A stretch of 62,809 nucleotides of DNA, the filler included, from Folioceros fuciformis (lineage: Eukaryota), in the NCBI GenBank assembly GCA_049999805.1. It is 8 parts of 8 records of this genome, joined end to end, with 100 filler letters (N's around TTAATTAATTAA, not from the genome) between each part and the next. Parts side by side here need not be neighbours in the genome. Positions count along the whole stretch, not along the records: positions 27,716 to 32,004 come from JBNGIO010001285.1; 7 more parts are not named here. One strand, 5' to 3'. Within the stretch, counting starts at the first letter, position 1. Every line of letters starts with the position of its first letter. Shown one piece after another: positions 12,820 to 52,926 of this stretch. The notes under the pieces are model-generated. The model saw only the letters and a program-made list of their open reading frames with translations, did no database searches and was not told the DNA's origin. The translations under genes were made by a program, and so were the position numbers.

Positions 12820-13187
12820 GGGCACGGCAAGTGCAACGAAGAGCGCAAGGGGCCGAGGAAAGGGCAAGGGCAAGAGCAAGGCCAAAAAGCAAGGAAGCGG
12901 GNNNNNNNNNNNNNNNNNNNNNNNNNNNNNNNNNNNNNNNNNNNNTTAATTAATTAANNNNNNNNNNNNNNNNNNNNNNNNNNNNNNNNNNNNNNNNNNN
13001 NGGGTCGGCCACGTTCTTTATGCCTGGTCCCATTGTGTTTCGCCCGGGCAAACGGCAATCTCACGAACGAGTCCAGCGCGAACGAGCCCCGGGGGTTGAC
13101 AGAAAGTGATAACGCACGCCGGCCCGTTGGTTTCAAATTACATACATATAGCAGTTGGAACTCTTAAGATGAAAATTTTATTATGAA

Positions 13188-13369
13188 TGAAAAATGCGGA
13201 GAGCAATTTGCCTCAATTAAACTTTTCAACACAGAAAGACAAAAATGAATTGTGTTTAAAAATGTCTACAAGTGTTACTTACATACTAAACCCAAATGAC
13301 GTTTCATCTTGGGCCTATCACCTAAACCCTAAATGTCACTTAGACTATGTGTTGGCTTTATTTCCAACA
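13188..13369 (-). repeat. 3' LTR of copia element A
   Basis: Minus strand begins TGTTGG directly after the PPT GAGAGGGAG (13370-13378) and ends TTTTTCA. Its last ~115 nt match 24948-25064 in inverted orientation. Confidence 0.85.
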
Positions 13370-16300
13370 CTCCCTCTCAAAGCAACACTAGGTCTAAGGT
13401 AAACACACAAGACAGTCGGGGAAGAGTCTCCTGCAGATCATCGTTACGGAACAACAAAGAAAAGTCTTCAGCTTTCAACGGAATCACGATTACTCTTAAA
13501 CCCTAGCGCTTCGAAAAATTGGTTTTCTTCGTTACGCTTGACTTAGCGGCCACCGCAATAGCTCTCGACTTCCTTGTCGCCACCATAATCAACTGTAGCC
13601 CAAGCCGCTGCTTGGAAGAGATGTAGATGGGCAGCGGGAAGATCCTTACTGAGCCACCGAGGGTTGAGAGGCGTAGAAGGCAACCAAGGATTGAAGAAGA
13701 AGTCTGGGTTCGCTGAATTGGGTGAGCTGCGGATCACTAGAGGGGGTCATACGACTCGTGAACAGTTTCCCAGCAATTCATGGGTCTCTCCCAGGGACAG
13801 TTCAGGCCCCAGCATCTCAGGGACCTAAACCCCAGCATATCGACTTCCGCTTCTTAGATATGGCTTTGCCCACCCTACTCGCCCAGCTCCGATTGGCAAC
13901 AGACAGGATCAAGGAGCTTGAGGATATGATTGCAGTCTGGAAGGGGACCATCCCCCAATGACGATCAGCACGATGTGAAGCCGTCTGTGTAGAAGGGACT
14001 GCACTGTAAGGAGATTAGATACTAAGGTAAGCTTCATCCTTCTTGCAGCGCAGTGTTTGCTCCCTATGTCTCCTCAAGTACTAATTCGCAGCAGCTGACC
14101 CGGCGGTGTGTATGTGGGGCTTGTGCAGTTATCCTATGTCTATGGAGGAAACACAGGCACAACTCATCAACACCTAGGGAACCTTCAGGTTCCCGCCCCA
14201 CCTCCCACAGGTAAGTCACTGCCTGTCCAAGTATCTTGAGTAATCATCCAGGCCTAAGCCTGACATGTGCTTGTAGTGTTTATGCTTCACCAAGCCCTTG
14301 GTTAACATGTCTGCAACATTGTCCTCTGTGTTTATGTATCCAACCTTCACAACTCCTCGCTCAACAATATCTCTTACATAGTGATGCTATATTTCGATGT
14401 GTTTAGTGCGAGCATGGATCCTAGGGTTTGCGACGAGAGCAAGTGCAGACATGTTATCACACAGTATTGAGGTAGGTGCCTACTGAGTTTGCCCCAAGTC
14501 ATGTAAGAAAGTCCTTTCCCATTTTGCCTCCTTCGAGGCATCTGTCAAAGACTTATACTCGGCTTCTGTTGATGACAGGGCAATGAACGACTATTTTTTA
14601 CATGACCAGTTTACAATTGCGGATATGAGCAGGAAACAGTATGTTGAGAGGCTTTTCTGGAATCACTGTCAAATGCCCAGTCGGCGTCTGTAAAACCAGA
14701 AAGTGTAAGTCTCTCCTGCCCATTCCTTCTGTAGAATACGCCATATGTATGGGTACCCTTCAAGTACCTAAATATCCTTTTAACTACGGTCCAATGTGCC
14801 TTGCCAGGCTTTTCCAGGAACTGAGACACAGTGCTCACATAGTATTGGATATCAGGCCTAGTCCAGTTTGCTACAAAAATCAGGCTTCCTACAACGTGCT
14901 TGTAAGGTACATCACACATGTCCTAAACCTCTTCTACAGTTTGTGGACACTGTAAGCTGGTAAGCTTAGCTTCTATAGACTAAGGAGTATTAGCAAGCCT
15001 AGCCTCATCAAGCTTGAATTTTCGCAAAATGTCATTGATGTACTTGTATTGGTGCACTATAATCAGTCCTTCCTCTCGTACCCTTAGGATCTGTACCCTA
15101 AGGCAGTACTTGAGCTCACCAATATCTTTCATCTCGAATTTGGTGCTCAGCATAAGTTTGACTTCAGCTAACAGTAGTTGATTGTTTGTGGTGAGGATGA
15201 CGTCGTCTACATATAGTGCCAACACCACGAAGTCATCACCTATGCTCAGCCTGTATACATTAGAGTCGGCAATGCTCTGGACAAAGGAAATACTAATAAG
15301 GTAAATGTGCATGGTTATATACCAAACCCTGCCACTCTGTTTCAAGCCATAGATGCATTTAAGCAGCTTTAGGACTTTGGTAGGGTTGTCAGGATCCTCA
15401 TATCCCTTTGGTTGTGCCATGTACAGGTCTTCGTCGAGAGCACCATAAAGGAATGTAGTGCACCCTTCCATTTGTTGCAGGTCCAAATTCAGCTCGGCTG
15501 CCAGGGCAAGGATTATGCGGATGGACTGTGAGCGAACTACTGGAGAGAATGTCTCCTAGTAGCCCAAGCCTTCAACTTGGGTAAACCCCCTAGCTACAAG
15601 CCTTGCTTTATAACGTGCGATTTCCCCTTTGGCATTAAGTTTCAATTTGAACACCCACTTGCAGGAGATGGGTTTTCGTCTAGGGGGCATATCGACAAGT
15701 TTCCAGGTTTTGTTCTTGAGCAAGGACTGGTATTCATCCTCCACTGCGATCTGCCACTTGGAAGCATTAGGCCCGGCCATAGCCTGTTTGTAGGAGCTGG
15801 GTTCCTCAGCAGGGAGAATGTCCATGGTAGCACCATATACTGCTGAAGAAGACTGAAAGTCCACAGACTGATACTGGGGCTCTAGCCACTGATCAAGAGC
15901 AAGCCAGGTACAGGTAGAACGACGAGGGCCAGGTGCATCAGGTGCTACAAAGTCCTCATAGGTAACCTCAGCACCACCGTCGGAAGAGTCCAGGTCCATG
16001 TCCCCAATGGAGGCCACTTCATTGATAGTGGTAGCATGATCCTGAGCAGTAGGATACTGGACTAACTTATCTACAGTGGGTGGTGCAGGTACAGCTGGAG
16101 GAGCAAGACTTGCAGAATCGTCAACAGCAGTGGCTGCAGCAGCGTCTGCAGTATTAGCTGAGCGTGATCTGCAGCATCCTCAGTCTCATCAAGAGGAAAG
16201 GTGGCTATGTTGGAATCCTCATCAAAGGGGCCATCAGCTGAGCCTTCGGACATAACTGAAGCTGTAGCAACAGGAGTATGGGGTTCCACAAAGGTAGCAC

Positions 16301-19300
16301 TTCGAGCTAGTGTTACTATCTGTGAGGCAGGGTCATAAAGTTTGTAAGCCTTAACATGCTCACTATAGCCGACAAAAATAAGGCTTTGAGTATGATTATC
16401 TAACTTTTTTCTCTTCTCTGTAGGAATATAGGCAAAAGCCTTAGACCCGAAGACCCGGAGGTGAAGTAAGCTAGGCTTGCGATGCCAGAAGACTTCAAAG
16501 GGTGTCCTCCCCTTGACTGAACTAGTCAGGACCTTGTTCAAGATGTAAGTGGTTGTGACTACAGCCTCTGCCAAGTACCCTTGTGGAAGGCCAGCCCATA
16601 GCAACATACTTCTCATCATGCCCAGTAGGGTTTGGTTTTTGCATTCAGCAACACCATTTTGCAGTTGGGTATACGGCACAATCAACTGCCTCTGGATGCC
16701 CTGCTCAGATAAGTACTCATCGAAAGCATTGTTGACAAATTCAGTACTATTGTCACTTCGTAGTACTTTGAGTAGGTAGCCTGACTCACGTTGAACTATT
16801 GGCAGCCAGTCCCTGAAGCAGCCAAGGGTGTTGCTCTTCAGTCGCATGGGAATAGTCCACGAATACCGGCTATAATCACCAGTCAGAGTTAAGTAATACA
16901 AAGCCCCCCCAAAAGAAGGTGTATGTATCTTACCAGAAATGTAAGATGCACAAAACCTAACACTAAGGACACTCTGTGTGCAGCTTTAGGGAAAGGAAGT
17001 TCCTTCTGTTTAGCAAGAATGCAAGACTCACAAACAGGTAAGCCCTTAAAACAGCTAGGCAACGATTCCCTATGGCAATCCTGCTTAGACATATCTATCA
17101 ACTTGTTTTTATTGGCATGCCCTAAATGCGCATGCCATAAGGAGGCAAGCTGACTAGAAGTCATGCTGATTGTGAAGGCTAACTGTTAGGTAGGAGAACA
17201 TCTCAAATCTAATTTGTACATGTCATAGTCAAGGAAGCTCTAAATACACACACAGAGGGAGAAGTCTTCCTATAGAAGCAGTAGGCCTCATCAGTCACGC
17301 TTATCTCATACGCATGCAACTGCATGAGCTTGCTCATCGACAAAAGATTCTTTGCCATGTATGGCACATATAGGACTCCTTCGACAGGTTGTACAGATCC
17401 ATCATTGAGAATGAAGGTACAAGTGCCATGTCCCTCCACAAAAAGTCCAGTGTCACTTCGCTCATCTCCTAACAAAACTTTGTCCTTCATGCGATGCAAG
17501 GATAGCTTGGAGAACAAGGTTTTGTCGTTGCAGATGTGGGTGGTAGCTCCTGAGTCAAGGTACCAATCCCCAACATCATGAACGGTGCTTATCAGGCAAA
17601 TAGTGAGAATCTTCACTGTGGCTTTCGAGTTTTCTCCCTTCTCCTTCAAGGCTACACTAGCAGATTGTTTTGTGGCCTGTTGCCACTGGGGTTCTCCTAC
17701 CTTCTTCTTCCGCCAGTCTCGTGCCCAGTGGCAAGGTGCCCCACACCAATTACAGTTACCAGTTTTCTTGGTGCCTAAAGAGGTAAAGTCAGAACCAAAA
17801 CTAGAACTGTTCTTGCCTTTTTGTTTGTTAGGCTTCAGCTAACACTTTGTCAGCCTTTGCTCTTGTGTTTACTATAGAGAACAAACAGCTCTGTTCTGCC
17901 TGATGCAAGGCAGCCACTATATTGTTGACAGTGAGGGTGCTTGCATTCCCAGCAGCAACAACGGCTTGTGAGGTGTACAAGGGTCCGTTGTACGAGCTAA
18001 TGAACTGCTGGAGTGATGCTAGCAAGCTACTCAACAGCTGGACCACAGCATGCTCTTCCTCAATCTTGTAATTGAAAGAGGCAAGCTGAGCACGGAGGTG
18101 GCGAAATTTACTAGTAAATCCCCCCACTTTGTCCTCGTCCTTCATCCTCAGGGTGTAGAATTCTTGCCATACGGCACACTTGGTCATGATGTTAGTAACC
18201 TGATACGTTTTCTCGAGTTGATTCCAAATCTCGATGCCCTTGGTCAAGTACTCAACGTCAGGAATAAGAAGAGCATCCAAGCCATTGATAATGACAGCTA
18301 CAGCAACTTCATTGTGAGCTGTCCATTTATCTATATCAGCTTGGCTACTGGTCTGAGGATCTGGTTCAGGAAATCCTCCACCAACAACAATCCAGACTCC
18401 CCTTGCTATCAGGAGAGCTTTCATGTGAACTTTCCACACAGGGTACAGCTTCCCATTAAACCTATCTTTTTCCTTCAGTTCTGACTTGAAGGAAGGGGTT
18501 GTCATGGTTGTTGTTGTTGTCCTTGTGATAGGTACAACAAATGGGTTGGTCCAGAAACTAGAGATATTTGTAGCCTGTAGGTCTTCTTCCCCCTCAAGCT
18601 CCAAAAACCCATTGAATCTAAGGTCAGATGCATTGTATGTACTCTCGATATCGAACATACGTGAACTAGCTAAGTCCCTTTCAAAAACTATGGTTTGAAA
18701 AGAAAAATAGTTAGGTCAGTTATGCTCCGATCTTGCTATTCCTGACTAATGCTCATCAGTGATACTAACAAAACGTGTCCAAGGGAATAGTTGAGGGTGA
18801 CAGCCTGGGAGGGGGTTGATACAAATGTATTTGGACCTTAACAGGCTAGCTCCCTCATCTACCTTCCTGAATACGTAATGGTGTAGGAATGAAACAGACA
18901 CCAACCCCTTTTGACTTTAAAAAATGTTTTGGTTTTCTTTAGTTAGGGTTTCTAACTGTCATTTCTTTGTCTGCTGAAACGAAAGGTTAGTTGATGGACC
19001 AAACAAACAACAAGAGATGCAAGCAAGCCAAAGGTCAGCAATGCAAATGTAACGCTTCAGATCCACGCCAAGAGCCACTGCTGATGATGCGCACTGTTTG
19101 GCATCTCCTGCGCTCCCCGCCAGAGGAAGCAAGGTCACAGGATAGAGTCTCCGCTCGCAGGCAGGAATTCTATAGAAAATCCCTGTCCAAGATCCATCAA
19201 ACGCAGCATTCCAACAATTTGAGAGATATTACTGTCAATTCTGGATATCTGTGTTTCGATGAAGACTTGCAGGCGAGCAACGTCGTCTCTCAAGATGTGC

Positions 19301-19488
19301 TGGTTTATCAGAAGATTCCGAAGGGAAGTTTCAACTGGAGTCTCTTGGGAAATTTGTTTATTTTATTTTATTTTTAGCAAATTTCTCAATTCGCTCTATA
19401 TCTGCAGCAGATTTGTCTCCTTGTCGCCGCCTAATCGTCCGTTGATGATGTGGTAGGTCGCGGACTTCTCCAAAAGCTTCCAATTCTT
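13188..19488 (-). mobile_element. Ty1/copia LTR retrotransposon A, main body, degenerate; its 5' LTR and PBS are displaced to 24917-25483 by an inversion
   Basis: Domain order on minus strand: gag (~18500-17830), Zn knuckle CNWCGAPCHW, protease WYLDSGATTH, integrase (RSDNSTEF, QNGVAE), RT (KARLVARGFTQ, YGLKQSGR, LYVDD), RNase H (GFTDADWA, KHIEI), PPT, LTR. Several stops and frameshifts. Confidence 0.92.
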
Positions 19489-22400
19489 CTTCAAGCAGTC
19501 TCTGACATACTTATGTTGCGAGATGGAAAGTCTCCTTGCCTTCCTATCTCTTGCAATCTCTATTCCAAGGCACCATGTAAGTTCCCCTGACTTTGTCATC
19601 TCGAATTCCTTTTTGAGGAGTGATTTAACCTTCTGCATTAAGCTCCCTTTGCCCGTGGTTGCAGCCAGGATTAGGCCATCTACGTACATCAGAAGTATCA
19701 GGAAACTCCTGTCCTCAGTCATAACATACAGCCCCGGGTCAACATCACCCTGCTTGAAGCCCATTTGCTTAAGATAAGTATCTATCCGCTGATTCCAAGC
19801 TCTAGGACTTTGTTTAAGTCCACACAAGGTTTTCTTTAGCTTACGGACTAGATGCTTTGTCCCTAGCTTTACGTAGCACTCAGGTTGCTCCATGTACAAG
19901 TCTTCTTCAAGAGTACCATGTAGAAAAGCGGTCTTCACGTCCATTTGCTCTAAATCCAGGTCCATATGCGCAGCTATGGCAAGAATCATTCGAAGGGTTG
20001 CAAACTTGACAACTGGAGCAAACGTGTCAAAAAAGTCTATGCTAGGAATATGAGAAAAACCTCTTGCTACCAGTCTGGCTTTGTAACGTTCAATGCTGCC
20101 ATTAGCTTTCATCTTTCGCTTGAAGACCCATTTACAAGAGATAGGTTTTCTACCCTTTGGCAACTCCTCCAATGTCCACGTTCCATTTTTAATTACGGAT
20201 GCATACTCATCCTCTACAGCCTTCTTCCACTGTCTTGCCTCAGGTCCTGAATATGCTTGTTGCATAGAGACTGGTTCAGCAGAATCCGAGGTGGATGCCA
20301 CCATGGCTTGAACAAACCACGTGGACGGGGTTGCATCCCTAGCTGAAACTACATCTTCATTGTCCACCTCAGCAGGTACTGGTGCCGGTGCCCCCACTGC
20401 AAGCACTTCCAAGGTAACGACACTACCAGCATTCGACTTGCCTCCCTTTTGCTTCTATAATCTAGTAACCCTAGCAGGCCTCTAGTCTTCCATCTCGAGG
20501 GGAGGCTCCTTCCACGGCCTGTTTCTTTCACGCAGATTGTATGTACTTCTCACTTTTGAAGCAGGTACATTAGCAATGGGTACCTCCTCTATGGGCTCTG
20601 CTACTTCCAATCCTTCTGTATAGGTGTCAGGTGATATACTATCACCCTCGACTGCAGTCTCAATATCATGACCATCATCATCCTCGCTAGATTGACCAAA
20701 AAATGAAACTTCAAACTGATCTACATCAGCATGGCTCAACATGGGTGCCCCATCGACTGGATCATCCTCGTCGGGGTCCTCAACTATCTTAGGTAAAACA
20801 TTTTCACCTCAGTCCGACTCAATGGAGGCATTAGGTGGATGCATCACTCGTCGTTCATCAAAAACTACACTACGTGCATGATTGACAATGCATTCCTCAG
20901 GGTCATAAAGCTTATAAGCTTTGATGCCATCAGTGTAACCTATGAACACTAACTTGTGTGCCCTGTTGTGCAGCTTCATTGTCCTTTTAGGCTTTGGAAC
21001 AAACGCATATGTTGGAGCACCGAAAATGCGAAGGTGCTCGATTGCTGGTTTTCGTCCCCACCACGCCTCAAATGGCATCATGCCAGGTAACACTCGAGTA
21101 GGCAACCTGTTGAGCAGGTAGTTAGCAGTGTTCATGGCCTCAGCCCAATATCGCCTAGGAAGCCTAGCCTGCTTAAGCAAAGCTCAAGCAGTTTCTTGCA
21201 ACAGCTGATTCTTCTTCTCTGCGACGCCGTTGAGCTGAGCTGTGCAGGGGACTGTGAGCTGCCTCATGATGGGAAGATCCCGACAATATGCTTTAAACTC
21301 ACCGGAGATGTACTCCCCACCATTGTCGGATCGGAGGCATCGCAAACTATGGCAAGTTTGCCGCTCACCCAGGTGCAGGAAATCTTTGAAGTGCTGAAGG
21401 GTTTCACTCTTGTACTTCAATATGTACAGAGTGCAGTAGCAAGTGAAATCATCGATAAAAGTGAGGAAATATAACCCACCACCAATGGAAGGTACTAAAA
21501 TCGGGCCGCAGATATCCGAATGCACGAGTTCCAGAGGTGTGGAGGCACGATGAGGAGGTACTTGTCTTGTCAAAAGCAACCTCATGATGTTTCCCATAGA
21601 TGCACGACTCACATAGCGGTAAGTCCCCCACTTGACCAGGTATCCCATCAGCATACAATGAGTTGTTCCACATTGCTGATAATTTTCTGCCATGTGGATG
21701 TCCGCAGTGCAGTTGCCAAAGCATAGCTGTCTCACCAGGGGTGAGGTTCGCAGAAATACCAACAACATTCAGCATTGGCAAGCTACTACCTTCAAGGCTC
21801 AGCTGGTATATATCGTTCGCTGGAAACCCTTCTACAAGTACGGCATCTAAATGCACGCTGTCCACAATTATGCACTTGTCTCCTTTGAATAGCACATTCA
21901 GAGTGGTGTCTGAATTCCAGACTGATAGCAGGTTCTTCGTGACTGCAAGAACGTGAAGAACGTCATGCAGCACTAGAGTCTTGCCATGATGCAGGTGCAG
22001 GGTCACTACACCCATCCCAACTATGAGTAGTGAGCTCTCATCGCCTAAGAGTACGGACTGCACATCCCTGTACTTCTCATACTCACTGAACGAGGACCTG
22101 CTGTGACAAATATGTGCAGATGCTCCAGAGTCAACAAACCATGCTAAAGTATGCGTACCAGCCGTGGTCAAGCAAACTGTAAGTATCACTTGTGGGTTTT
22201 TCTTCTTAACAGCTTGCACAGTGTGCACCTCCGGAGAGCCTGCACCTTCCTTTTGGGGCTCACCAGCTTTGCGTTTCCGGCAATCTCGAGCCCAATGACT
22301 TGGTATGCCACACCAATGGCAATTTCCAGCCTTCTTTTCACTTCCTGAAGCTTGTCCAGGAGCACTAGAACTAGGTCTGCTGCCTTTGTTTGAGTTCCAG

Positions 22401-24517
22401 CCTCCACGTCCTCTTTGATACGGTTTGCCCTATCCAGCAAACAAGGCTTGTTGGCCTTGTGTTTGATGTTTGCCAGATCTAGAGGAAAGCCGCGTGGCTT
22501 CCTCTTGCAGCATGGCCCCAACGACACCGTTATGTCAAGGGTTATACATCAATCTTTAAGGCTTTCGACAGCCGGGCCTCCACCTTTGCCATCGCTTGCT
22601 GACCAGTGACAAAGGGTCCAAAGCTGGGTGGTAATGAACTCAACAGCCTGCAACTAGCTTCGTAGTCAGTAATCTTTACAGCCGTGGAACATAGCTTAGC
22701 TCGTGCGATTCTGAATCTCCCGATGTAGTGCTCCACAGTCTCACCTTCTGTCATTCTAAGGCTGTGGTACCTTGTTGATGCAGACATAGACGCAGCCATA
22801 TTGTTGGAGGCAAACATCATTGCTAAATGATCCCACATCTCCTTTGCTGAGTCTCCAGGCCCATCTAAAGCCTGTCTAATCATTTCAGGACCCAAACTTG
22901 AACAAATCAGGTTCCTTGCACGGATATCAGCCAAAGTCCATACTGGCACGTCGGTAGAACTGACATAAGGCTTCTCTGTTTCTCTGCTCACAACATGCCA
23001 GAGATTCTTTTCTCCAAGCGCACCTTGCATGCGCATTACCCAAATGTCATATTCAGCACCAGTCACCAGACGGTCTTTCTCCTTAAACCCACCGCTGGTA
23101 AGTGACTGCAACACATTCAACATGTCTTCTCTGGCCTTCTCCTCCTCCTCATGTTGGTACGACTAAACCAAACTGTATCTCTTTCTGACAGGTCTGTGTT
23201 CACAAATGCACGGGTGGAATCTGCATCTGTACTCCTAATTGACTCACTATCTGAAAACTCTATAACACCGACTTCCTGCGCTAAATGACGAAGCCAGGCA
23301 TGTGTTCTGTAAGAATGACTCTCGCTCATCTGTCACAGCTACCAGCATTGTTTGACTCAACCTGTTTCTGTTGACAGTGAATGTAGACTGTACGGTTTTC
23401 ATTAGCAGCCAAGGACTGAGTGATCTTTGTATGTTCCAGGATGTGGGGCTTAGCCAAGACAAACAACTTCACATCCAACGGCTGCAAGTAGGATTCTAGT
23501 CTAGCCACTTGATCGGTTGACAGGATATGCTGGGTGCGACACAATGTTGTGCTGTTAATGTTATCGAGGCGTTGGGATAGATTTTGAATAGACATAGCAA
23601 GCGACTCAACTTGACCTCTTCTCAACACTGACTCTGAATGACGTTGTGCAACAGGCTCTCGTCGACTATACGACAGTGACCTACGATAGTGATGGATGCT
23701 TGGATTTGCCGTAGCAAGATTTGGGATCCTCTGAGGTTGAGTGCGCCTGTCTCAGGTCACCAAAATATTGATCACTTCATAAGGAGGGACGAACTGGGGC
23801 ATGCTTCTCTAATTGCGCCTACCGGAACGATGGCGTTGTGCCATCCTAGGGACAAGGTACGCCAACCTCCCCAGTTCCTTTACTTGCAGGCTCTGCACTT
23901 CGACTTGACATCCTCAACCCTTCCACCTTCGCTGCACTCGCTACCAGTTGCAGCGTACACCTACTGGCCTCCAGACCGCACTGCACAGGAAAATCAAGAT
24001 CGTCGATGAGCAATCTTGACACGCTTGTGGATGTGAACCGCCCTCTTCTTCCGCTGCTCCTTGTTGCACCAAAGCACAACACTCATTGCTTGATCGATCA
24101 TGAAGGCTAATTCCAGGTACATGAATTGACAAAGGAACAACATCCAGCCAACCCACTGATTAAGGGGAAGGCTGCCCATAGTGTAAGTTGTTCTTGATTG
24201 ACTAACCACTTTGCAGGGTGTTGGTGCTATCCATGTGCTTCGTATCAAAGTGACAAAAAAAAAAAAAGGCTGCGCCTCAATAGAGGGCCCAGGGATTGCA
24301 TCAACGCCTGGTCAAGGCTCTGATACCATAACGCAGTGTACACAAAATACAAGGTTGTATATAAGAAAAATAGCGCACATAGTTCTTGTAGGTTCGTGCG
24401 TGCGTGGGTGACACACGACGGTTATTCGTGTAACTACCCTCTAACCCTAACTACTTATTTTAGGTTAGCTGTTTGACATTATTTTACGCTTTATAAGGAG
24501 GGCTGAATATCTCAACA
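19483..24517 (-). mobile_element. Ty1/copia element B, 5' part (5' LTR, PBS, leader, gag, PR, INT, most of RT), lying in the inverted segment
   Basis: LTR 24329-24517 and PBS TGGTATCAGAGC at 24317-24328; gag 22542-23123; CHWCGIPSHWARDC knuckle; WFVDSGASAH; LRSDNGGEY; RT with KARLVARGF and QMDVKTAFLHG. RT breaks after SISQHKYVRDCLKK at ~19486. Confidence 0.92.
24329..24517 (-). repeat. 5' LTR of copia element B (189 bp, TG...TA)
   Basis: Inverted copy of 26603-26791, about 14 mismatches by eye, mostly transitions. Adjacent to the tRNAiMet PBS. Outer flank reads AGTTT on the minus strand. Confidence 0.92.
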
Positions 24518-24916
24518 AAACTCACATTAGCTGGTATAGAATAAGCTATGCATAAAAGTAGTCCTGAATAGGGTCAGTAACTATAATGCTTGCCATCAAC
24601 ATTTGGTTAAGGACAAGGTGCAACTACTCTTTGAATGTTTACTTAATGCCCATGAATGACATCATGGGTGGGTGTATAGTAACCTCTTTTAGTATATTGA
24701 GTAAGATGCATTATAGAGACATAGCTCGAATGCCACTAGTTTAGCCAAGTTTAGAGGGAAGTACTCCTATGAAGGTTGTAGGAGGTTGGATGTGAAATCC
24801 AATATGCATGGTTATCCCAACATTCTTAAAAGAGTAGAGTCTAAGACCAACCCTTTTGGTTGTTACAAAATTTAGAAGGATCTAATAGCTTAGATATGAA
24901 AGCTTGGCTATCTTTT

Positions 24917-25064
24917 TGTTGAGCAAGGGTTTAGGGTTTAGGGTTTAAATGTCATTTGGGTTTAGTCTATAAGTAACACTTGTAGACATTTTTAAACATA
25001 ATTCATTTTTTGTCTTTCTATGTTGAAAAGTTTAATTGAGCCAAATTGCTCTCCAAATTTTTCA
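24917..25064 (+). repeat. 5' LTR of copia element A (displaced, inverted)
   Basis: Ends TTTTTCA and is immediately followed by the PBS TGGTATCAGAGC (25065-25076). Its 3' ~115 nt match the 13188-13369 LTR. The 5' boundary at TGTTGAG is uncertain. Confidence 0.8.
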
Positions 25065-25111
25065 TGGTATCAGAGCATGTTCTTAATGCTCTCTACCTCT
25101 CCTAGGACATA

Positions 25112-26260
25112 ATGCCTGGTCGGGGTAGATCTCCTGTAGATCAACGTCAACGCAGGAGAAGACTTAGTGGTGGAACATATTGTCCACGATACCCTAACCA
25201 AGTCCTAGTTGACACAGTCCCTAATCTATACGAGGCAAACTACCCTGACATACGGCTACGGCAGTGGCTCGGGAGGAATTCAAGCATATCAAATTCTAGG
25301 GTGTATGCTATCAAGCTTCAGCAATCGAGAATCTCTGAAACAGATTCTCATGACCCTGCCCGGTGCATCGCCAGGAACCTGCTTGATCCTTGCTTCCAAC
25401 CATTGGCCAGGAGTGCTGAACTAGAGTCACTGACTTCAGCATTACTCGTTTACACCCCTGACTTCTGTCCAATTGCTTATTACAAGAATGCGAATGGATG
25501 GGCCACTTCGTTGGTCACAGGGCTGAAACTGATGAAGAGCCTGGTTCCCATGACACCTGAAGAAGCTGAAGAGATGTCTAGGACACCATATCGGCATGCA
25601 GTGGGGACCCTAATCTATTTGTCAAACGTTACACGACTAGATATTGCCTTCTCTGTTAGCATGAAGTCACAGTTCTTAGAAAACCCTCACCCTGAGCATT
25701 GGAGCCAAGTCAAAAGAATGTTCAGATACCTGAAATCCACACTAACGCATGGCATTACGTATGCTAGGACAAAGGAGCTCTTAACTTTGGAGGGCTTCTA
25801 CGACTCAGACTGGGCGCCTGACCTGGACAGCAGGAAGTCCCTATCAGCCTTTGTGTTCTTATTGGCAGGAGGTCTAGTCGCCTGGATAAGCAAGAAACAA
25901 GCAACTGTATCAACTTCCAGCACGAAAGTTGAATACAAAGCACTTATAGTAGCTGCAAAAGAGGCAATCTGGATCAGGCGGAACCTATCTGATGTTGGGA
26001 TGAAGCAACCGAGCGCCACCGTTCTTCAATGTGATAATCAAGGCGCCATTGCGCTATCAAGAAACCCTGTTTTCCACTCTAAGGTGAAGCATATGGAAAT
26101 ACACCACCATTACATAAGAGAAGTGGTGAGCAATGATCAGATGCCAGTCCAGTATATTCCTACAATTGAGAACCTTGCAGATCTATTGACCAAAGCCCTA
26201 CCTAGAGAGCTGCACAACAAACATGCAAATAGGCTGGGCATAGCAGCCTGTGAGAAGTAA
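25112..26260 (+). CDS. Chimeric 382-aa ORF: element A leader ORF fused in frame to element B RT C-terminus and RNase H
   Basis: The first ~125 aa show no retro motif. From ~25490 it reads GLKL..PMTPEEAEEMSRTPYRHAVGTLIYL, GFYDSDWA, SSTKVEY, CDNQGAI, KHMEIHHHYIRE, NLADLLTKAL. Confidence 0.75.
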   Translation: MPGRGRSPVDQRQRRRRLSGGTYCPRYPNQVLVDTVPNLYEANYPDIRLRQWLGRNSSISNSRVYAIKLQQSRISETDSHDPARCIARNLLDPCFQPLARSAELESLTSALLVYTPDFCPIAYYKNANGWATSLVTGLKLMKSLVPMTPEEAEEMSRTPYRHAVGTLIYLSNVTRLDIAFSVSMKSQFLENPHPEHWSQVKRMFRYLKSTLTHGITYARTKELLTLEGFYDSDWAPDLDSRKSLSAFVFLLAGGLVAWISKKQATVSTSSTKVEYKALIVAAKEAIWIRRNLSDVGMKQPSATVLQCDNQGAIALSRNPVFHSKVKHMEIHHHYIREVVSNDQMPVQYIPTIENLADLLTKALPRELHNKHANRLGIAACEK

Positions 26261-26791
26261 CAGCAGACAGTCCGCCTACATGCGATCCATCGACAAACTG
26301 TCAGCTATGTAGAAGTTTCGACTGGTGCCAGGTGAAGTTTCATCATCAATTCCCACTCGCAGAAGGTAAAGCCTTGTCTTCCTACAGATGAAGGAGGGTG
26401 GAGCCCATTTGCGCCGCGGAAGACCAGTGTGCAGCCATTCCGTGAACCGACTGGTAGCAGCTGCCGTTGGTGCAAGCTCAGGTGCTGCGAAGTAGAGAAG
26501 AAGAGAGTAGCTTCTGCCTGAATCGTGTCGAAGAGTCTGACGGCTGAGCGTAAGAGCGGCATTAGAAGTATTAACAATATAAGATAGGACCTCAAGTGGG
26601 GGTGTTGAGATATTTGGCCCTCCTTGTAAAGCGTAAAATAATGTCAAACAGCTAACCTAAAATAATTAGTTAGGGTTAGAAAGTAGTTACACAAATAACC
26701 ATAGTGTGTCACCCGCGCGCGCACAAACCTACAAGAACTATGTGCGCTATTTTTCTTATATGCAACCTTGTATTTTGTGTACACCGCGTTA
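25484..26791 (+). mobile_element. Ty1/copia element B, 3' part (RT end, RNase H, PPT, 3' LTR 26603-26791)
   Basis: RNase H motifs; purine tract AAGTGGGGG before TGTTGAG; LTR ends CGCGTTA and is followed by AGTTT (TSD). Confidence 0.92.
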
Positions 26792-27716
26792 AGTTTCAAC
26801 TAGAGCTACAATTTTCAGTGCTACTGAAAATCAGAAAATGCAGGCATAGCGGTGATTCATCCCCTTACCTTGGAGAGTTATGGAGCAATCACTTAAAGAC
26901 TTAGAATCAATTCATCAAGTCTTGTGTCTTATGCTAAAGATTGGCTATGAAAGAAAATATGAAGCAATCTTACCTCTTTCTTCTGGTGTCAAGTATTGAT
27001 TGCATGAGCCATCTGGATGATGCATCTTCACCATGATCCATGGAGTAGGTCTCCTTTTGATGGATTCGTACATCTCTCCTTAAACCCTTTGCATGGAAAC
27101 AATCTTGAGTATTGACTGAAAGCATGCTCAACCTTTATGTCATCCTGTGAGTAGATGAATGAAAGATTTGTGAGTAGATGAAAGAAAGATTTGCCAACAT
27201 TCAAGGTATAACTAGACTACGCCGTTCCAAGGTCCTTCGATATGAAAGGAGAAAAAAAGAGAGAATCCACATGAATCAAACTACCACCTCCCTCTCCGTA
27301 GGTAGGAAATAAGAAAGGATTAGACAGACTCCAATGGTAGTAGGGCTCCAATAGAGATCTCTGCCATCACGTTGCAAAATGGAATAGAATTACACGACAA
27401 GCACACTGCAAGAGAATTACACGGGCACCACATCCGTACCAGCAATTAGGTTAGTCGGTTGATGGCAATAAGGTGAGTGCAACGTCACGATCATCGTTTT
27501 CTTGTTGACCAAGGACCCTGAAACACTGTCTGCCTCCGAGCCGAGCCAGGGAGCTCCGAGTGAGGTGTTCCGCTCCGAATGGATCACTGGCCGGGAACTG
27601 CGCACAAGGCTTTATNNNNNNNNNNNNNNNNNNNNNNNNNNNNNNNNNNNNNNNNNNNNTTAATTAATTAANNNNNNNNNNNNNNNNNNNNNNNNNNNNN
27701 NNNNNNNNNNNNNNNC

Positions 27717-27887
27717 GGCAACGGTGCTGGACTGCTATACAACACTAGCACCAAGCAATGGGAAGAGCCCCGAATTAAGGAGCGTGAGCACATCATGGGC
27801 TTTCCAGCTCATGCCACAACAGCACCCAAGGTCACAGTCTCACAACATTGTCTTGTTGTCGGTCGAGCTATGGACCTGCATGCCACC
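27717..27887 (+). pseudogene. Fragment of a cytosine-5 DNA methyltransferase catalytic C-terminus (motifs IX-X, DRM/DNMT3-like)
   Basis: Own translation: GNGAGLLYNTSTKQWEEPRIKEREHIMGFPAHATTAPKVTVSQHCLVVGRAMDLHAT. EP..ERE.IMGFP..T followed by G.AMD resembles DRM/DNMT3 EPxExERxxGFPxxxT...LGxS. Bounded by an assembly gap on the left and an LTR on the right. Confidence 0.62.
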
Positions 27888-28466
27888 TGTTAAGTATTAA
27901 ATGTTCATTATATACATTAGGTTATACCAAGTAGGTTAGTCTATTAGTTTAATTTTAGTTATAACTATCTTCACAGCGGTTGGACATATGTGTGCATTGC
28001 ATGCTTAATCAATTCAATGCCTTTGTGTGTAAGCTCTCCATGGGTGTCTGAATTCTCAGAAAAATTTACATGGTATCAGAGTAGGATGATCCTCATCCTT
28101 GCTAATCGTTTCTGCCTTTCTATAAGCACACAATCTTAATTGGAATTGTTTAAGGGGCAGAATGATATTACATTTTCTATGGACATTTGCTGATGAGGAC
28201 GGAATTACAATGCCTCGCAAAGACATATGCAAGCATTTCTTCTCTGAAGATCTGAGCGTTAAACATGGCAAGGGAAGAGCTCCAACCACTCTGAGGGACT
28301 TGGAGTTTCAAGAGGAATTCGAACGTCTTTACTTCAAACAACACATATCTCAGGCTAAGCAAGTTGAAAGAGTTTGATTTCTTCAACAATTTGTAGACTC
28401 CTTTCCCCCAGAGTTTCGTACATCTAAGCCTCCACCTATGTCAAGAAGCTCAAGCAAGTTATAAAG
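27888..28466 (+). mobile_element. Copia element D remnant: 5' LTR (27888-28070), PBS (28071-28082) and leader, interrupted by element C
   Basis: AT-rich TGTTAAG...TTTACA segment followed by TGGTATCAGAGT. Confidence 0.65.
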
Positions 28467-30645
28467 TGTTGGAATAACGTTTCGTTATATGAGTAACCTA
28501 GGAGTATGCATGGTTAAAAGACCTACCTAGTTAGGGTTTGGTATAAATATTTTATCTTTGAATGTTATTATTTATGCACTCTTAATTGATTGATTCTACT
28601 CTCACAAGTGCTGGTCACCTTCGTGCCCCTTTGGAGCTGTATGCACCAAATGTCAAGCAATCTTGTCATCAAGCCAACGTGCTGTATTTTAGTTATGGTA
28701 TCAGAGCCTCTTCCGCTGGTGATTATGTTATAGGGAAGATGTCAAGGAACAGATCCAACTCTGGAGTTGGAGGAAGAGGAGGTTTTGTCAAAGCCTTCTC
28801 TCGACCCTTTGAAAGAGTATCTGTCCCCTCGAGCATTCCCTGGATTGAGGCTGAATCTAAGGCAAACCATGACCAACGAATTTTGGAGAATTGCTGGCAT
28901 TGTCAGAATCGCAGTGATTCTCGGCGTTTAACAAAGAAATTTGCTACATTTAAACCCTATGATAATTGTGGTAGATTTTTCAAGTCATATCAATCTACAG
29001 GCAAACCACCTTTGAGATGCCCTGCCTCAGCCCCACAATCCTGCACGAAGACCATCGGTACCTCATTAGATACATTGCTGGATTTTCAGCCCAGGTTACA
29101 GAACCTGGAAGGTACATTAAATGCTGCTATTCAGCGTCAGGAGTCCTTTTCCAAACGGCTGGACTCAACAGATATGAAAATCCATGCAATTGCCACTAGG
29201 TTTTCTTCAAAAATTGACAGACTAACCACATAGTTACAGACCTTGAACAAGATCTTGTGCTATATAGAGGTTCCTTTTTCTTTGATGTGCTGTTCTACTG
29301 ACACCTTCACATGAGCCTTCCACTGCCACAGCACAGGCAGTTATTAACCATTTTTCAAAACTCACAAGCCCTAGGAAGAAAGTCAGCAGGCTAGTTTAGT
29401 TTTGCTGAAATAGAAACCCTAAAAAAACGTTTTCAGATATATAACCGTCTACCTGTTCAGACCTGCTCACATCTTTCCCCTGTCTCCTTATCTTCGCCAT
29501 GGACGTGGTCAAGGTCACGATTCTCCACCCATAGTTCCTACACGTCCAGTAGTCATGGCAGCCAATTTAGCACCAACTTTCACATCCAAAGTTAAGGATA
29601 GAGACAGATTTAATGGCACAAAATTTGAAATCTGGCATGTTCGTATGCAAACAACCTTAAGAGCCAGAGGTGTTTGGAAAATTGTTGATGGTTCCTATCC
29701 AGATTCTATCCTCCCAGCTGTTGGTGCTGTTTCTACTAGAGACACCCAAGTAACTTAGGATGACGTTGACAAATGGCATGAAGTGAACAGTGTGGCAGTT
29801 GCCATCATTGTCTATGGACTTGATGAAGTTTTGATTCCTGATGTGGAGAATCTGACCAAGCAAAGGACATTTGGGACCAGCTTATTGGTACATATTATGT
29901 GAAGACAATGCTTTCCAAATTTGCAGCAATGCATGAGTTCTATACTTTGAAGTTGCGGGAGGGTGACAGTGTGGCTGCCCACACAAGCAAATTTTGTTAC
30001 CTTCGCTCCCACCTTGCTCAATTGAACTCTACGATGTCTGAGGAGGACACCGTTGCGCAGTTTCTTCTCACTTTGCCTGCATCATATCAAACTTTTGTCT
30101 CACTACAAAATGGACCTTTAGCTATTTCTGGTTAGAATGTAGCAGCAGGTGAACCGGGAGCTATCACCCTGGAGAGCGTTATTGCAGCCCTCTTCCAGGA
30201 GGAATAGAGCCAACTTCAACATAACACAGGTGGCTCTGGAAAGATACGGACAGACAAGGTCCTTTACACCTCTACTCCCTGTGGATGTTTTGGGAGGGGG
30301 AGAGGCAGAGGAGGTAGAGGCCGACAAAATAGCCAAACCTCCACTGCTGGATCTTCTTCCACGAACACAAAGAAACTTGGTAGCTGCAAGTGGTGTAACA
30401 CACCAGGACATTGGGAGAGAGACTATTGCCGCAAGAAGGCTGGCCAGCCTCGCCGTCCCAAACCAGAAGTGAACTCTATTGCCAAGGAGAGATCTTCGAC
30501 TAAAGGAGGCAAAGCTATGGTCAAGATTTACACCATCTATCTTTCCTCTTCATCAAGTGATCCTAGTAGCTGGTATTTGTATTCTAGCGCCACTGCGCAC
30601 ATCTACAAGGACAAGAGCTTATTTAGCAGTGTGGAGGCAAAACCC
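28467..30645 (+). mobile_element. Truncated copia element C: LTR 28467-28695, PBS 28696-28707, leader ORF, gag, Zn knuckle, degenerate protease
   Basis: TGTTGG...TAGTTA LTR then TGGTATCAGAGC. Gag at 29555 (FTSKVKDRDRFNG..IWHVRMQTTLRARGVW) is similar to element A gag. CKWCNTPGHW knuckle and SWYLYSSATAHI. Contains stops and frameshifts. Confidence 0.85.
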
Positions 30646-36784: not shown

Positions 36785-38323
36785 GGAAGAGGAGGAGTCA
36801 CGGGCATTTGGTGGGGCTGAAGCTCGAGCATCACCCCCACCTGGACTAAACATCTGCTCGGTCCTCACCTGTTATGGATCCCTAAGGTCTGGCCGGAAAA
36901 GAGAGGCACGGACATGTTTGCAGCAGGAAGCTGGGCCTGACCCCGACACATAATAGTTGCGCCTAGCGCATGAACGACACATGGGCCGAGGAAGGCGGTG
37001 GAGGAGAGGGCAGTTGCGGGCAGGGCTAGGAGAAGCAGAAGCTAGAGAGGGCCCAAGAAAGGGAGGGGCAGGGCAGGAACGGGAGTGGGGAAGGAGGGAG
37101 GAGGTGGGGATACGCGCGTCTCGGTCTTCTTCCACCACCTTCACCTTCACCTCCGCCTGCAGTGAAGCCAGAGCTCGAGCGGCGGCGATGGTGAGGGAAG
37201 AGCATATTGGTGCTGGATCTGCGTGTAGCCTACGTTGCGAGCAGGGGCACCGCAGTCCACCTAAGCCGAGGACAGCAGCATCGCGGACGGTGGTGGAGAG
37301 CATAAGGTGGCGCCATGGCACCCGGCTGGCTGCGGCGCGTGTCCCTGAACCTGTGCCTGTCCAAGTGTGTGCCTGTGCGTAGGCCTGGTGGTGCTGCTGC
37401 TGTTGCTGTTGCCTCCCAACCTGGTGGTGGAGTGCCGCGCCGCGCCGCGCCACGCGAAGGCAAGCCCGCCGTTGAGCTACACTGGAGCGGCCGAACCCTA
37501 GAGGCCGCGATCCGGCAGTGCGCGCCACAAAATGGGGGCCTGCAGGCCAACACAGAGCTTACCTGTGTCGAAGGGGGCGGATGGCAGGAGCAACCCTAAG
37601 GTCTCCACTCCTGCAGCGCGACAGGACAGGGTGCGGAACAGGAAGAGGAAGAGGAAGAGAAGAGCAGAGGAGAGCAGGGAGGTGCGAGCGACCCCTAGCC
37701 CCCGAGGGCGCTGGTGGTGGAGGAGGAGAAGCTAGCATCCTGAGGGGAGTGCGAAGCACGACATGGCGGCAACAGGGGAGGAAGAGGAATTGCACACAAA
37801 GCGGCAGCTGGCGAGGAAGAGGGACGTAAGTCGGGGGAAGGGAGGAGATGATGATGCGGGAAGGAAGGAAAAGATGCGGAGAGAGACTGGGCTTTGAACA
37901 GGCAGCGGCAGCGGTGTGGCGGGTTAGCGACGTTGCGTCCCCCACAGCACTAGCTAGCTTTGGCGTTGCTGCGTCGCCTCCTTCTTCTTCTCCTCCTTCT
38001 CCTTGTTGTTGCTGCTGCTGCTGCTGCTGAGACGAGCTGGTGTGTTGCGGCCGAGGTCTTGTGCNNNNNNNNNNNNNNNNNNNNNNNNNNNNNNNNNNNN
38101 NNNNNNNNTTAATTAATTAANNNNNNNNNNNNNNNNNNNNNNNNNNNNNNNNNNNNNNNNNNNNTGCCCCATCTGCTTCCTGGTATTGGCCAAATTTCTT
38201 TTGCGTTTTTTCCCCTGCTAACTTGCTTTAAAATTCGTCTGGCCGATGCCAATTTTGGTCGGGGATCCGGCGCTCGCTCTTCCCTCCTGCTCATTAACTG
38301 CTCGAATCCGTGTGTTTGTGCAG

Positions 38324-40887
38324 CATTACCCGAGTTTGAATCGCTCCAAATGTTGCGCCAAAGGCATTTGCACAGGTGTGTGCACGTCGCTGTGCCTGCA
38401 TCACTCCGCCGTCGTGCCCTCTCTTCTCCTCTCTTCTCCTCTCTTCTCTTCATGTCTTGGCTTTTTGCGCTGCCTTCGGCGCTCAAGCCCGGTGTGTCGG
38501 CTCTGCGCAGAATGTTTTTTGCAGATGAAATCTCCTCATGTGTCCCGGCCTACGCAGTGCCCTTTCTGCAAGACACCCAATTATGCTGTGGAGTACCGTG
38601 GCGCCAAGACTTTGGAGGAGAAGGGAGTGGAGCAAGCGGTATGCTCTTCATCCTCCGCTACTCGAATTTGAGGGCCTGAGATGTGAGGGCTCAACTCTGG
38701 TGCCCTACTTGTCTTGTGGATGCAGGAGGAGCAGAAAGTTATAGAGGCCAAGATCAGAATGCGGCAGCAGGAGCTGCAGGACGAAGAGGAGCGTGTGCAG
38801 CGCAGGGAAGATGGCATCCGGGGTGGGATTGTCTCCTCCTTGCCCTCACCGCCCGCTACGCCGTCCAACATTCATGGGGCCTTTCCTGTAACCCTCGACG
38901 ACGCGGAAGTTGATGCTGCAACTGTGATAGATGCCGTGACAGTTGGCGGGAGAGAACCTCGTGCCCGAGGAACTAATGGCAGGCCAGTTGGTACACCTCA
39001 ACCTGGTATTTTTTCTACGGCAGGCCTCTTCGCAACTCCATCTGTAGCGGTCGACCCGGACTCTCTTTGGTTCAGGGCAAGTCACACAACGGATGCAACA
39101 GACTTGGCCGGTGGATTGAGACAACCCAGGCTTGCCTCTGTCAATCTTGCGTCTATGCATATGCCTTCCTCAAATTCTTTGGGAAGTAATTCTGGAGGGA
39201 TTGGGTCTGTGGGTGCTGAACCTGGTGTTGTGTTGGGACCTGTCACTGGAGCCCGAGGGGGAGGCCCAGCCTACGCCCGATTGAATAGGTTTGTTTCCTC
39301 ACCCACTTGTCTTTGCTGAGGCACGACGTAATGCCGCTTTGGCTGAGCGTATTGTCATGTGGAGAGGCACGTGCACCAGCGGCTGCTGTTCTCGAGTCTT
39401 TTTGTCTATTTTGCCCATCCACATTTGTTTCAAGCGTATGTCATCTGATCCTCCCATGGTACCTTGTATATCTGTGCTGGGAGGGTAATTTTCTAGCACA
39501 GATGCCTCAAGGCACTGGGCACGAGGCAAAAGTTCTCAAACTGCGAGGAGTCTCGAGCTCTTGCTTGCATCTGTCTGTTTTATCAGGGCTGTGGTGCAGC
39601 AGTTAGCGAGCACACCATGTGCTGCAGAAACGGCCCTGGCGGCTTCTGAATTAGACTGGGTGTAGGGAGATCTTGCTGGGCCGTGGCCTGCATCAGAAAA
39701 TATGTTTTGCTTGATGGCCTCTCGCCTGTCCTAGGGGTTTTCGATTGTTCATGTCATGATGATTTGAGACAAGGTTTTAACAGTCCTAATTCATTGGCAT
39801 GCCTGCAGGGAGGAAGACTTTGACTTGGATTTGGAGGATATCATGGTTATGGAAGCTATTTGGCTTTCAATCCAGGTACACTCCAGAAGTCTTGTGACAT
39901 GAGAATGTGTTGGTTATCGGCCTTCAGTGCTGCCCTAAACGTTTCTTTGTATGTTATGGGTTCCAGGAGCAAGGTCCACAAAGGCATTCAGAGAACGAAT
40001 CAAACGTAGCTCCAGAAAATGTTTCATCAGTTGTGTCTCAAATTACAGCCAGACATCAGGACTCCAGGATTGGAGAAAACGAGTCACCCTCCTCCAGAAC
40101 AGTGGTCCAAAATGCTGACTCCAGGGAGCCTATTACTAGGCGAAATTCGGTGACAGGTGGGCTTGCTGGGGCAATTGCTGCCTTGGCTGAACGTCAAGTG
40201 GCAGGTGGTGGATCAGGCGATTATGTCACATCGAGCCAGGTTTTCCACACAGCAGACTCTGTAGATTCAGAGCCAACAGAGCAACGAGGTGGCGGAGAAG
40301 GTGCTGAGGAGGAAGGTGGACTGAGCAGTGCAGGTACGGCTGCTGAACTTGTTGCTGAGAATGCTGGGACGTCAAATCCTTCTTCCTACAGCCTACGCAG
40401 GCAACAAGGTTCTGCGGATTGTGAGAGGGGGAGTGAAACGGAAGCATGGCTGCAAGCAAGCCAAATGCGTGAAAGTGCAGGAGTGGCGGATCGCAGGGGG
40501 GGAGTACCCTCGGTCAGTGCTTTGGATTCTTGTTCTGGGTTTCATATGCGGGAGGGGTCTGCAGACCAGGGCAGACCGTCCCTTGGTGCGCAATCTGCAA
40601 GGGAGGGGTGTGGTGTAGGTCCACTTCCCGGGGTGATGAATGATTTTAGTCCACAAGCTGCCAATGTAAGGACGTTGAGTGGTTTGTCTCCCGCCTCAGG
40701 GCCGGTGGGAATTGCACAGGAAGTATCCACCAGCGTCACGTCAGAAACCAGCGGTGAGATGGGTTCAGGTGCTGAGAACATGGTGCCAGAGAGCTTCGAG
40801 GAACAGATGATGCTAGCTATGGCGTTATCCCTAGCAGAAGCGCAGGCTAGGGATGGTAGAGATGAAGAGCGAGGAGCCCAGATGTGA
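38324..40887 (+). CDS. DA2: GW2/DA2-like RING-type E3 ubiquitin ligase; first exons lost in the gap
   Basis: Exons 38324-38375, 38511-38638, 38726-39288, 39809-39875, 39967-40887. Peptide has [76 protein letters not shown] and [18 protein letters not shown]. Confidence 0.92.
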
Positions 40888-41422
40888 ATGATATTTTGTG
40901 GCTTGAGTTCCGCACCCGCATGCTTGGAACGCTCGTACCAGGGTGGTGTTTGTACCAAGCTCTGTGGAATGATGGGTTGGCGATCCGCCTTCCAGGATCC
41001 CCTGACCACGCCACTCTGGACGAAAATGGGCATCTGTCTTGTGGATTGAATCTCATTACTGACAATTGGTTCCTGTCTTCGTTGAGGATAGGTTCACAAG
41101 GGAGAAACGTCACGGGCTTTTGTTGTGCTCTCGTTGGTTCAATCTCTCACCCGTGTCCTAACGATAGCAGTTCATGATTGGATTGACAGGCGGGGTGACC
41201 AATGAACTCATGGCACGAAGGTGACAAGACTTGTTACCCAATAGAGAAAGAACCGAATTAATCCGTCACAATCGCTTTCGTGAGTTGGTGGCACTTGTAA
41301 GTACAGCCCGGGAATACAGAGCGACACGTAGTACGGATGTCTACGCCCAGACAGCAAATGTCTGGTTTTTCTTTTGAATCCAATCCATTGGAGCCACATC
41401 CATGCTGCTGTGATGGGCGGGG

Positions 41423-52550: not shown

Positions 52551-52926
52551 TTAATCTGTGTTAGGGTAAATGACCCTTAACACGGAGCGCCGCAGCAAGC
52601 GCGAGCGGAAGGCGCCAGACCGCGGGGGCGCCGCCACGGGCATAGCAGGCTCGGATGCCGTGGGTGCCATCGGCACCAATCGTGAACGTGGGTGTCGTGC
52701 GCAATAGGTTAGGACGTGGGCGTGGGCGAACTCAGTTGGGAGCGACCGAATTCCGGCCGCAAATGGTAGAGTTAATCTTGCAACGCTAAGAGGGCCAGAA
52801 TCGGACTTGGGCCCATCGTGTCGGCCTAAATTGTGGACAGTCGTGAGGGTAACTTTCAGATTGTATATTACATCTTTGATCATTTTCTAACTAGCCTTTT
52901 TACTTGATTTGTATCGATTTTGAAAT

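Follow-up and report, generated by a model that had tools for sequence, protein, structure and literature searches.

A Ty3/Gypsy retrotransposon family with a DNMT3-type methyltransferase domain in the land plant Folioceros fuciformis

Introduction

Plants silence transposons by cytosine methylation. Among retrotransposons that encode a DNA methyltransferase (DNMT) of their own, the closest described counterpart of the elements reported here is KnitGypsy-Dnmt3 of Klebsormidium nitens, in which an intronless, non-rearranged Dnmt3-type domain lies within a Gypsy Pol frame, the repeats have a DIRS-like layout and the DNMT is under purifying selection (de Mendoza et al. 2018, PMC5890265). The same report describes SymbioDIRS-Dnmt3 of Symbiodinium, which methylates CG de novo in yeast (PMC5890265). 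Here we analyze a 62,809-nt stretch of DNA from Folioceros fuciformis (assembly GCA_049999805.1; hereafter the window), positions 27,717 to 27,887 of which encode a C-terminal piece of a DNMT3-type domain. We assign a probability of about 0.9 to the reading that this piece is a relic of a Ty3/Gypsy family encoding, as a single polyprotein, Gag, protease, DNMT3, reverse transcriptase (RT), RNase H, integrase and a PHD finger.

By comparison of descriptions rather than of sequences, this family belongs with KnitGypsy-Dnmt3 on four features: an intronless, non-permuted DNMT3, its position in a Gypsy Pol frame, an A-coding-B-A-B arrangement of two repeats, and purifying selection. It differs in its land-plant host, in the coexistence of three divergent families, two of them with near-identical young copies, and in its 4-bp target duplications, 7-bp inverted ends, solo A-B units and C-terminal PHD finger; figures apart, the main text of the 2018 report does not contain the term "PHD" (PMC5890265). 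SymbioDIRS-Dnmt3, as described there, also has a Dnmt3 in Pol beside RT and A-coding-B-A-B repeats, but it uses a tyrosine recombinase, whereas the present family has a DDE integrase and target duplications. EpiLTRs and DAM-LTRs are likewise long terminal repeat (LTR) elements bearing DNA methyltransferases and a histone reader, but their DNMT is described as sister to DNMT4 and is accompanied by an adenine methylase and a chromodomain; the paper describing them (May 2026) sets it apart from the streptophyte kind, which the text names only as "streptophytes (Gypsy-DNMT3)" (bioRxiv 10.64898/2026.05.21.726589). Finally, the chromoviruses Chlamyvir and Tcn1 share the Gypsy order, a chromatin reader past the integrase, and seed-free plant or algal hosts, but carry a chromodomain where this family has a PHD finger; "methyltransferase", "methylase" and "PHD" are absent from the main text of the REXdb paper (PMC6317226). 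What is new here is the host group, a land plant; the Gypsy-Dnmt3 kind was already known from algae.

Results

The frame at 27,717..27,887 on the plus strand comprises 57 stop-free codons and translates to exactly the residues quoted in a first-pass annotation of the window, which had read them as motifs IX-X of a C5 methyltransferase of DRM/DNMT3 type. It covers the end of the target-recognition region and motifs IX-X, and corresponds to residues 1237-1292 of P0002, the product of a single 2386-codon open frame on contig C5196, with which it shares 59% amino-acid identity over a 56-residue match. Among 61 polyproteins from outside this genome the fragment scored up to 56.6 bits, while 200 shuffles scored at most 26.2 bits. 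Its nearest copies, all of them broken, lie on contigs C5138, C5612, C5729, C2204, C6396 and C5682 with 81-88% DNA identity (88% for those on C5138 and C5612), and their layout, as far as each reaches, is protease-DNMT-RT. In a quick unrooted tree, of whose columns the fragment fills 18%, it groups with the copies on C5138, C2204 and C5682 with a Shimodaira-Hasegawa-like approximate likelihood ratio (SH-aLRT) support of 100.

P0002 is ordered Gag, protease, DNMT (PF00145), RT (RVT_1), RNase H, integrase (rve, H2C2) and C-terminal PHD finger, so that one frame holds the DNMT with RT and RNase H, and integrase comes last among the Pol enzymes, as in Gypsy. A chromovirus-type end was rejected, as the Pfam matches of P0002 include a PHD finger but lack a chromodomain. 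The DNMT is in frame with RT and RNase H in families 1 and 2, the window's own subfamily being represented by broken copies; family 2, whose DNMT is ~40% identical, has open frames and copies 99% identical to one another, and the third family is decayed. Genome searches gave 51 matches for the peptide (70 of 70 candidates scored) and 124 for the whole DNMT domain (121 of 190 scored), each a lower bound rather than a copy number. Within 1.5 kb of the best 29 of the 50 other peptide matches, motif IV was found upstream at 26, protease at 22 and RT at 18, and three loci lacked both protease and RT, two of these on contigs shorter than 1.6 kb. The suggestion that a transposon of a land plant encodes this methyltransferase is thus borne out in the relatives, where the DNMT sits between protease and RT of a Ty3/Gypsy polyprotein. 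For the window copy, linkage to RT and integrase is predicted from these relatives, since no further similarity to the element turned up: a search for the remainder of the copy found nothing in the window, the contig to the left (13,002-27,615) has no similarity to the element, tblastx included, and contig C1284 matches neither the window nor the polyprotein.

Three copies of family 2 (L158 on G000:C25, L161 on C6056 and L160 on C6226) carry different in-frame internal deletions that start just past the DNMT. Lost are RT, RT-RNase H, or the stretch from RT to the integrase core, so that protease-DNMT is fused to RNase H, integrase or the PHD finger. The in-frame bias may be an artefact of selection because these copies were chosen for their long frames.

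The DNMT domain of P0002 has motifs I, IV, VI, VIII, IX and X, in what we take to be the standard numbering, in ordinary order at residues 990, 1075, 1118, 1159, 1258 and 1285. The intronless, non-rearranged domain with its catalytic motifs is a property of the relatives; the window copy retains only IX-X. Among proteins of solved structure, DNMT3A, 3B and 3C match it best by sequence (E 1.5e-10), and the part equal to the window peptide aligns to the end of DNMT3A, weakly on its own. A structure model from 62 sequences reached a predicted local distance difference test score (pLDDT) of 96.2 and a predicted template-modelling score (pTM) of 0.93, against a pLDDT of 36 without an alignment, and its best Foldseek match was DNMT3A (E 5.7e-19, TM 0.72/0.84). 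Of the alignment members, 53/62 match PF00145 at E<=0.01, and the catalytic residues are retained in 60 (Cys), 61 (Glu), 59 (Arg) and 58 (Arg) of the 62 aligned homologues. The ESM Atlas returned only generic C5-methylase clusters, mostly viral, and Rfam gave no match in the open copy or in the window's contig. Profile, sequence and predicted fold all argue for a domain of DNMT3 type; the annotation's assignment to a C5 methyltransferase and its DNMT3 alternative stand, and its DRM alternative does not. The annotation had also proposed a search of the peptide against PF00145, with the lack of a match as grounds for rejection. Taken literally, that outcome was obtained, as Pfam places the peptide alone in no family at E<=10. 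The missing match is a sensitivity limit, because the full domain of a relative, at 25.2 bits, exceeds the 22-bit threshold of PF00145.

The DNMT is under purifying selection between subfamilies. Synonymous sites are saturated there (proportion of synonymous differences, pS, 0.71-0.84), and the corresponding non-synonymous proportion (pN) for the DNMT is 0.19-0.28, above that of RT (mostly 0.10-0.14) yet clearly constrained; in the two pairs with computable dS, the ratio of non-synonymous to synonymous substitution rates (dN/dS) is 0.14-0.15.

The genome also holds cellular methyltransferases with which the fragment could be compared: two DRMs (contigs C5799 and C4599), two CMT-like loci, one MET1-like locus, and one exon-split DNMT3-like locus on C4480 that is separate from the element copies, the CMT, MET1 and DNMT3 names being our presumptive assignments by motif. 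Plant DRMs and bryophyte DNMT3 enzymes share the DNMT3 superfamily fold and motifs with the element domain. Both DRMs have the permuted order, VI-X before I-IV, so that motif X is followed by motif I; in P0002 the order runs from I to X and then to RT, and the element domain has neither the permutation nor UBA domains. Nor does it resemble a low-copy, intron-containing host DNMT3 gene, as the copy-number search suggested by the annotation found it at 51 matches, intronless and inside Pol. The divergence from host DRM that the annotation had noted is marked: the peptide has no BLAST match to either DRM at E<=10, and a profile of retrotransposon DNMTs built without the fragment gives it 59.8 bits and the matching stretches of the DRMs 8.4 and 9.2 bits, a comparison that covers the DRMs, since no motif IX-X segment could be retrieved for the host DNMT3.

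The termini of the elements are built from two repeats. On C6246, the parts of a complete copy follow one another as A (~470 nt), body, G-rich tract, B (~112 nt), A, B. Its first bases are TGTCGTG and its last CACGACA, giving 7-bp inverted ends, and a 4-bp duplication lies on either side. The 3' B-A-B arrangement recurs on C6133, C6355, C554 and C4816, and the window's subfamily has the same layout with its own A, which occurs both at 5' ends and behind B. An ordinary pair of LTRs was ruled out because 5' ends start at A, with no B ahead of the body. Both ends could be located on a single contig for four copies (C6246, C5473, C3150 and C3521); all four are flanked by 4-bp target duplications, which are those of integrase-type insertion, and two of the four are solo A-B units; these duplications, with the rve and H2C2 integrase domains, also led us to reject a DIRS element. 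Some copies end after the first B, as would be expected from B-by-B recombination. No tRNA-type primer site was evident after the 5' repeat A. Where B meets A inside the element there is a 16-bp palindrome (L035:7514-8123; G000:C6246:203899-204599) that resembles an end-to-end circle junction. The combination of split-repeat ends and integrase-type duplications poses a replication puzzle in its own right.

Since the two A repeats of a copy are nearly equal (5/466 and 13/470 sites differ) and four copies are 97-99.5% identical to P0002 in protein, the spread has been recent. Family 1 is also likely transcribed, judging from an RNA sequencing run (X1): of 766 words sampled from the open copy, a fraction of 0.93 is present in it. 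Run X1 aligned to positions 38,165-44,282 of the window at >=99% with 14 joints, all GT..AG or CT..AC, and these two properties identify it as spliced RNA of this species; a second run (X2) had nothing aligned on that stretch. Differences among the young copies amount to 64/330 CG, 160/865 CHG and 88/2524 CHH sites, or ~5x more per site for CG and CHG than for CHH, in five non-independent comparisons with one common reference. The pattern is consistent with host CG and CHG methylation of the kind described for Anthoceros agrestis (PMC10952607).

Homologous polyproteins comprise 61 long and 48 short proteins, with 248 representatives at E<=1e-30. Named sources are Haematococcus, Chlamydomonas eustigma, Monoraphidium, Closterium and the liverwort Calypogeia fissa, and no Klebsormidium sequence is among the named matches. 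The Calypogeia protein has the nearest named DNMT (54%) and consists of Gag-protease-DNMT plus the beginning of RT. The DNMT precedes RT in 11 of 134 long homologues (from this genome, Calypogeia and Closterium) and lies behind it in 87 (the named ones chlorophyte), the other 36 being without detectable RT; in the chlorophyte relatives (P0021, P0022, P0052, P0055 and unnamed proteins) it sits between RNase H and integrase. A tree of RT-RNase H splits by DNMT position with an SH-aLRT of 100 (32 rows, DNMT-bearing elements only). The DNMT tree lacks that split, and places a clade of this family and Calypogeia (99) closer to the chlorophyte type (93) than to Closterium; both trees are quick ones with no outgroup and with most rows unnamed. 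Our literature search, which lay outside most subscription journals and Repbase, found no report of a land-plant member or of the chlorophyte form.

The window copy is dead, killed by an LTR insertion just past motif X. Homology shared with seven other copies stops at ~27,887 in the alignment, and an unrelated 183-bp TG...CA LTR occupies 27,888..28,070 on the plus strand, starting at the LTR insertion point that the annotation had given; its three relatives elsewhere (80-81%) all begin at the identical TGTTAA, one of them with a 5-bp target duplication. The LTR is followed on the same strand by a primer-binding site read from the sequence, TGGTATCAGAG (28,071..28,081), which we take to be of initiator-Met tRNA type. 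A second such site at 28,696-28,708 points to a further nested insertion, and a decayed Copia-type gag of the inserted element or elements follows at 29,423..30,132 on the plus strand (PF13961 at 29,423-29,755 and PF14223 at 29,842-30,132). The transposon setting claimed for the fragment is therefore real, but the surrounding Copia elements of the window do not include its carrier; one of them destroyed the copy. DNMT-Gypsy and Copia elements are mutually nested repeatedly (G000:C5196:1-539, C5561 and window:27888). On its 5' side, the frame starts at base 2 of the 4.3-kb contig C1285, immediately 3' of an assembly spacer of nominal length (N44-TTAATTAATTAA-N44; 27,616..27,715) that conceals any surviving 5' portion of the copy; the window is a chain of contigs with seven such 100-nt spacers as joins.

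The host is a land plant, given a gene content that includes a DELLA domain, seven EPF-family matches and >=150 DYW domains, and given a neutral invertase for which lycophyte, liverwort and moss proteins are the nearest named relatives, at 77-82% identity. Only one YABBY and two invertase loci were found; together with the DNMT3-like gene and an assembly of 87 Mb, they favor a hornwort over Selaginella as the probable lineage, although a tree of the invertase did not place the host. Long frames without introns encode this invertase and a WEB-family gene (window:10,992-12,899 and 45,624-47,993, both on the minus strand) and both host DRMs (L164:2269-5040 and L165:2269-4539). Two genes occupy 38,165-44,282: one on the plus strand, with four GT..AG joints, and an EF-hand/Na-Ca exchanger gene on the minus strand, with ten CT..AC joints; these convergent genes meet within 39,962-41,573, a region spanned by one RNA contig. 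At 24,329-26,791, a 189-nt inverted repeat (93%) surrounds a 384-codon frame (25,106-26,260, plus strand) with no Pfam family, and the unit is possibly a DNA transposon-like element. Decayed Copia elements lie at 14,983-23,162 (minus strand, two in tandem) and at 52,924-55,068 (plus strand).

Discussion

A role for the methyltransferase in the life of the element can be proposed from the position of the domain. The polyprotein would be packaged with the element's RNA and then cleaved by its own protease, which would locate the DNMT in the particle at the site of complementary DNA (cDNA) synthesis. There the DNMT would methylate CG on the new cDNA, a step to which we give slightly better than even odds; CG activity has a precedent in the SymbioDIRS-Dnmt3 retrotransposon domain, described as methylating CG in yeast (PMC5890265). 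A fresh copy would then enter the genome already marked, and would be either shielded from host surveillance or self-limiting, while the PHD finger of the integrase would most likely read histone H3 tails and so influence site choice. Self-methylation of this kind is inferred.

Several observations weigh against the account given here, some at the level of the enzyme and some at that of the window copy. In yeast, the KnitGypsy-Dnmt3 domain gave no methylation, a result that its authors call inconclusive (PMC5890265). The linkage anticipated by the annotation, to RT, integrase and repeats with motifs I and IV, was found in the relatives, but motif IV reads GWECQ in place of the usual PC; among the homologues, 28/62 have GWECQ and 19/62 have GWPCQ. 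The CpG observed/expected ratio of the open copy (0.34) shows no stronger depletion than in three DNMT-free Copia stretches of the window (0.33, 0.51 and 0.57), and the equal enrichment of CG and CHG differences is explained by host MET1 and CMT alone; neither measure reveals a self-methylation footprint beyond the host's. The few DNMT differences among the youngest copies carry no purifying signal (dN/dS 1.2 and 1.8, resting on 1 synonymous and 4-6 non-synonymous changes). Reads from introns are also present in run X1, if at lower depth, and its alignment is to a stretch of the window rather than to the element, so that DNA carry-over is possible. Lastly, the window copy itself shows a 56-residue match only, with a gap on one side and an LTR on the other, and no linkage to RT or integrase is visible there.

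The strongest alternative accepts the same carrier and gives the enzyme another substrate: the DNMT would bind DNA or RNA, methylate RNA, or act with the PHD finger on host chromatin near the insertion, and not on cDNA. We regard this as a serious contender that falls short of even odds. The inactivity of the Klebsormidium domain in yeast, the unusual motif IV and the lack of a footprint beyond the host's all speak for it, and the three family-2 copies that retain an in-frame protease-DNMT while losing RT would fit a role apart from cDNA synthesis. Against this, the catalytic residues are all kept across green plants, the predicted fold matches that of the DNA-acting DNMT3, and a DNMT that is part of Pol should reach the particle.

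The remaining alternatives question the fragment or its host. A misassembly, in which a repeat-derived read end was fused to the LTR at a contig start, is improbable: the assembly is fragmented, the fragment does lie at the very start of a 4.3-kb contig, and neither the rest of its copy nor a partner of the LTR was found (the genome search gave 4 matches, the LTR itself included), but the break falls exactly at the LTR's first base, where the LTR's relatives also begin, no other copy seen exceeds 88-89% identity to the fragment, which so marks a distinct locus, and the evidence for the family is independent of the window locus. Still less probable is an origin of the elements in a contaminating alga; the named homologues are mostly algal, but copies lie on contigs of 307-397 kb, nested with Copia elements, the nearest named DNMT and RT are those of the liverwort Calypogeia fissa, and the window's scaffold bears land-plant genes. 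Least probable of all is derivation from a host DRM or DNMT3 gene, as a pseudogene or a stray exon that lies among transposons by chance. The invisible carrier of the window copy and the host's own genes of these types (two DRMs and a DNMT3-like gene with introns) might favor this reading, but it is refuted in practice by the 82-88% DNA identity to Gypsy copies, the alignment with seven other copies, the tree placement, and the profile and motif-order differences from the DRMs.

With the fragment read as a relic of the DNMT3-bearing Gypsy family, a broader and more tentative proposal can be framed, one that we think has the odds against it as a whole. The DNMT3-bearing, PHD-tipped Gypsy elements may be one lineage as old as green plants, and not a Klebsormidium one-off, inherited in a chlorophyte form with the DNMT behind RNase H and a streptophyte form with the DNMT before RT; this lineage would still be transposing in a land plant, would methylate its own new cDNA, and would replicate via an internal palindromic end-to-end junction. 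The distribution over chlorophytes, Closterium, a liverwort and this plant calls into question an isolated capture in Klebsormidium.

The 171-bp scrap in the window is inert; the finding lies in the family behind it, which has young copies with open frames in a land plant. The function of the Gypsy-borne enzyme was left open in 2018 (PMC5890265), and young, open-frame, probably transcribed copies in a small-genome plant, together with many homologues that have a confidently predicted DNMT3 fold, make the role of the enzyme testable. By maintaining a de novo methyltransferase of its own under selection, a land-plant retrotransposon would turn the defence around.
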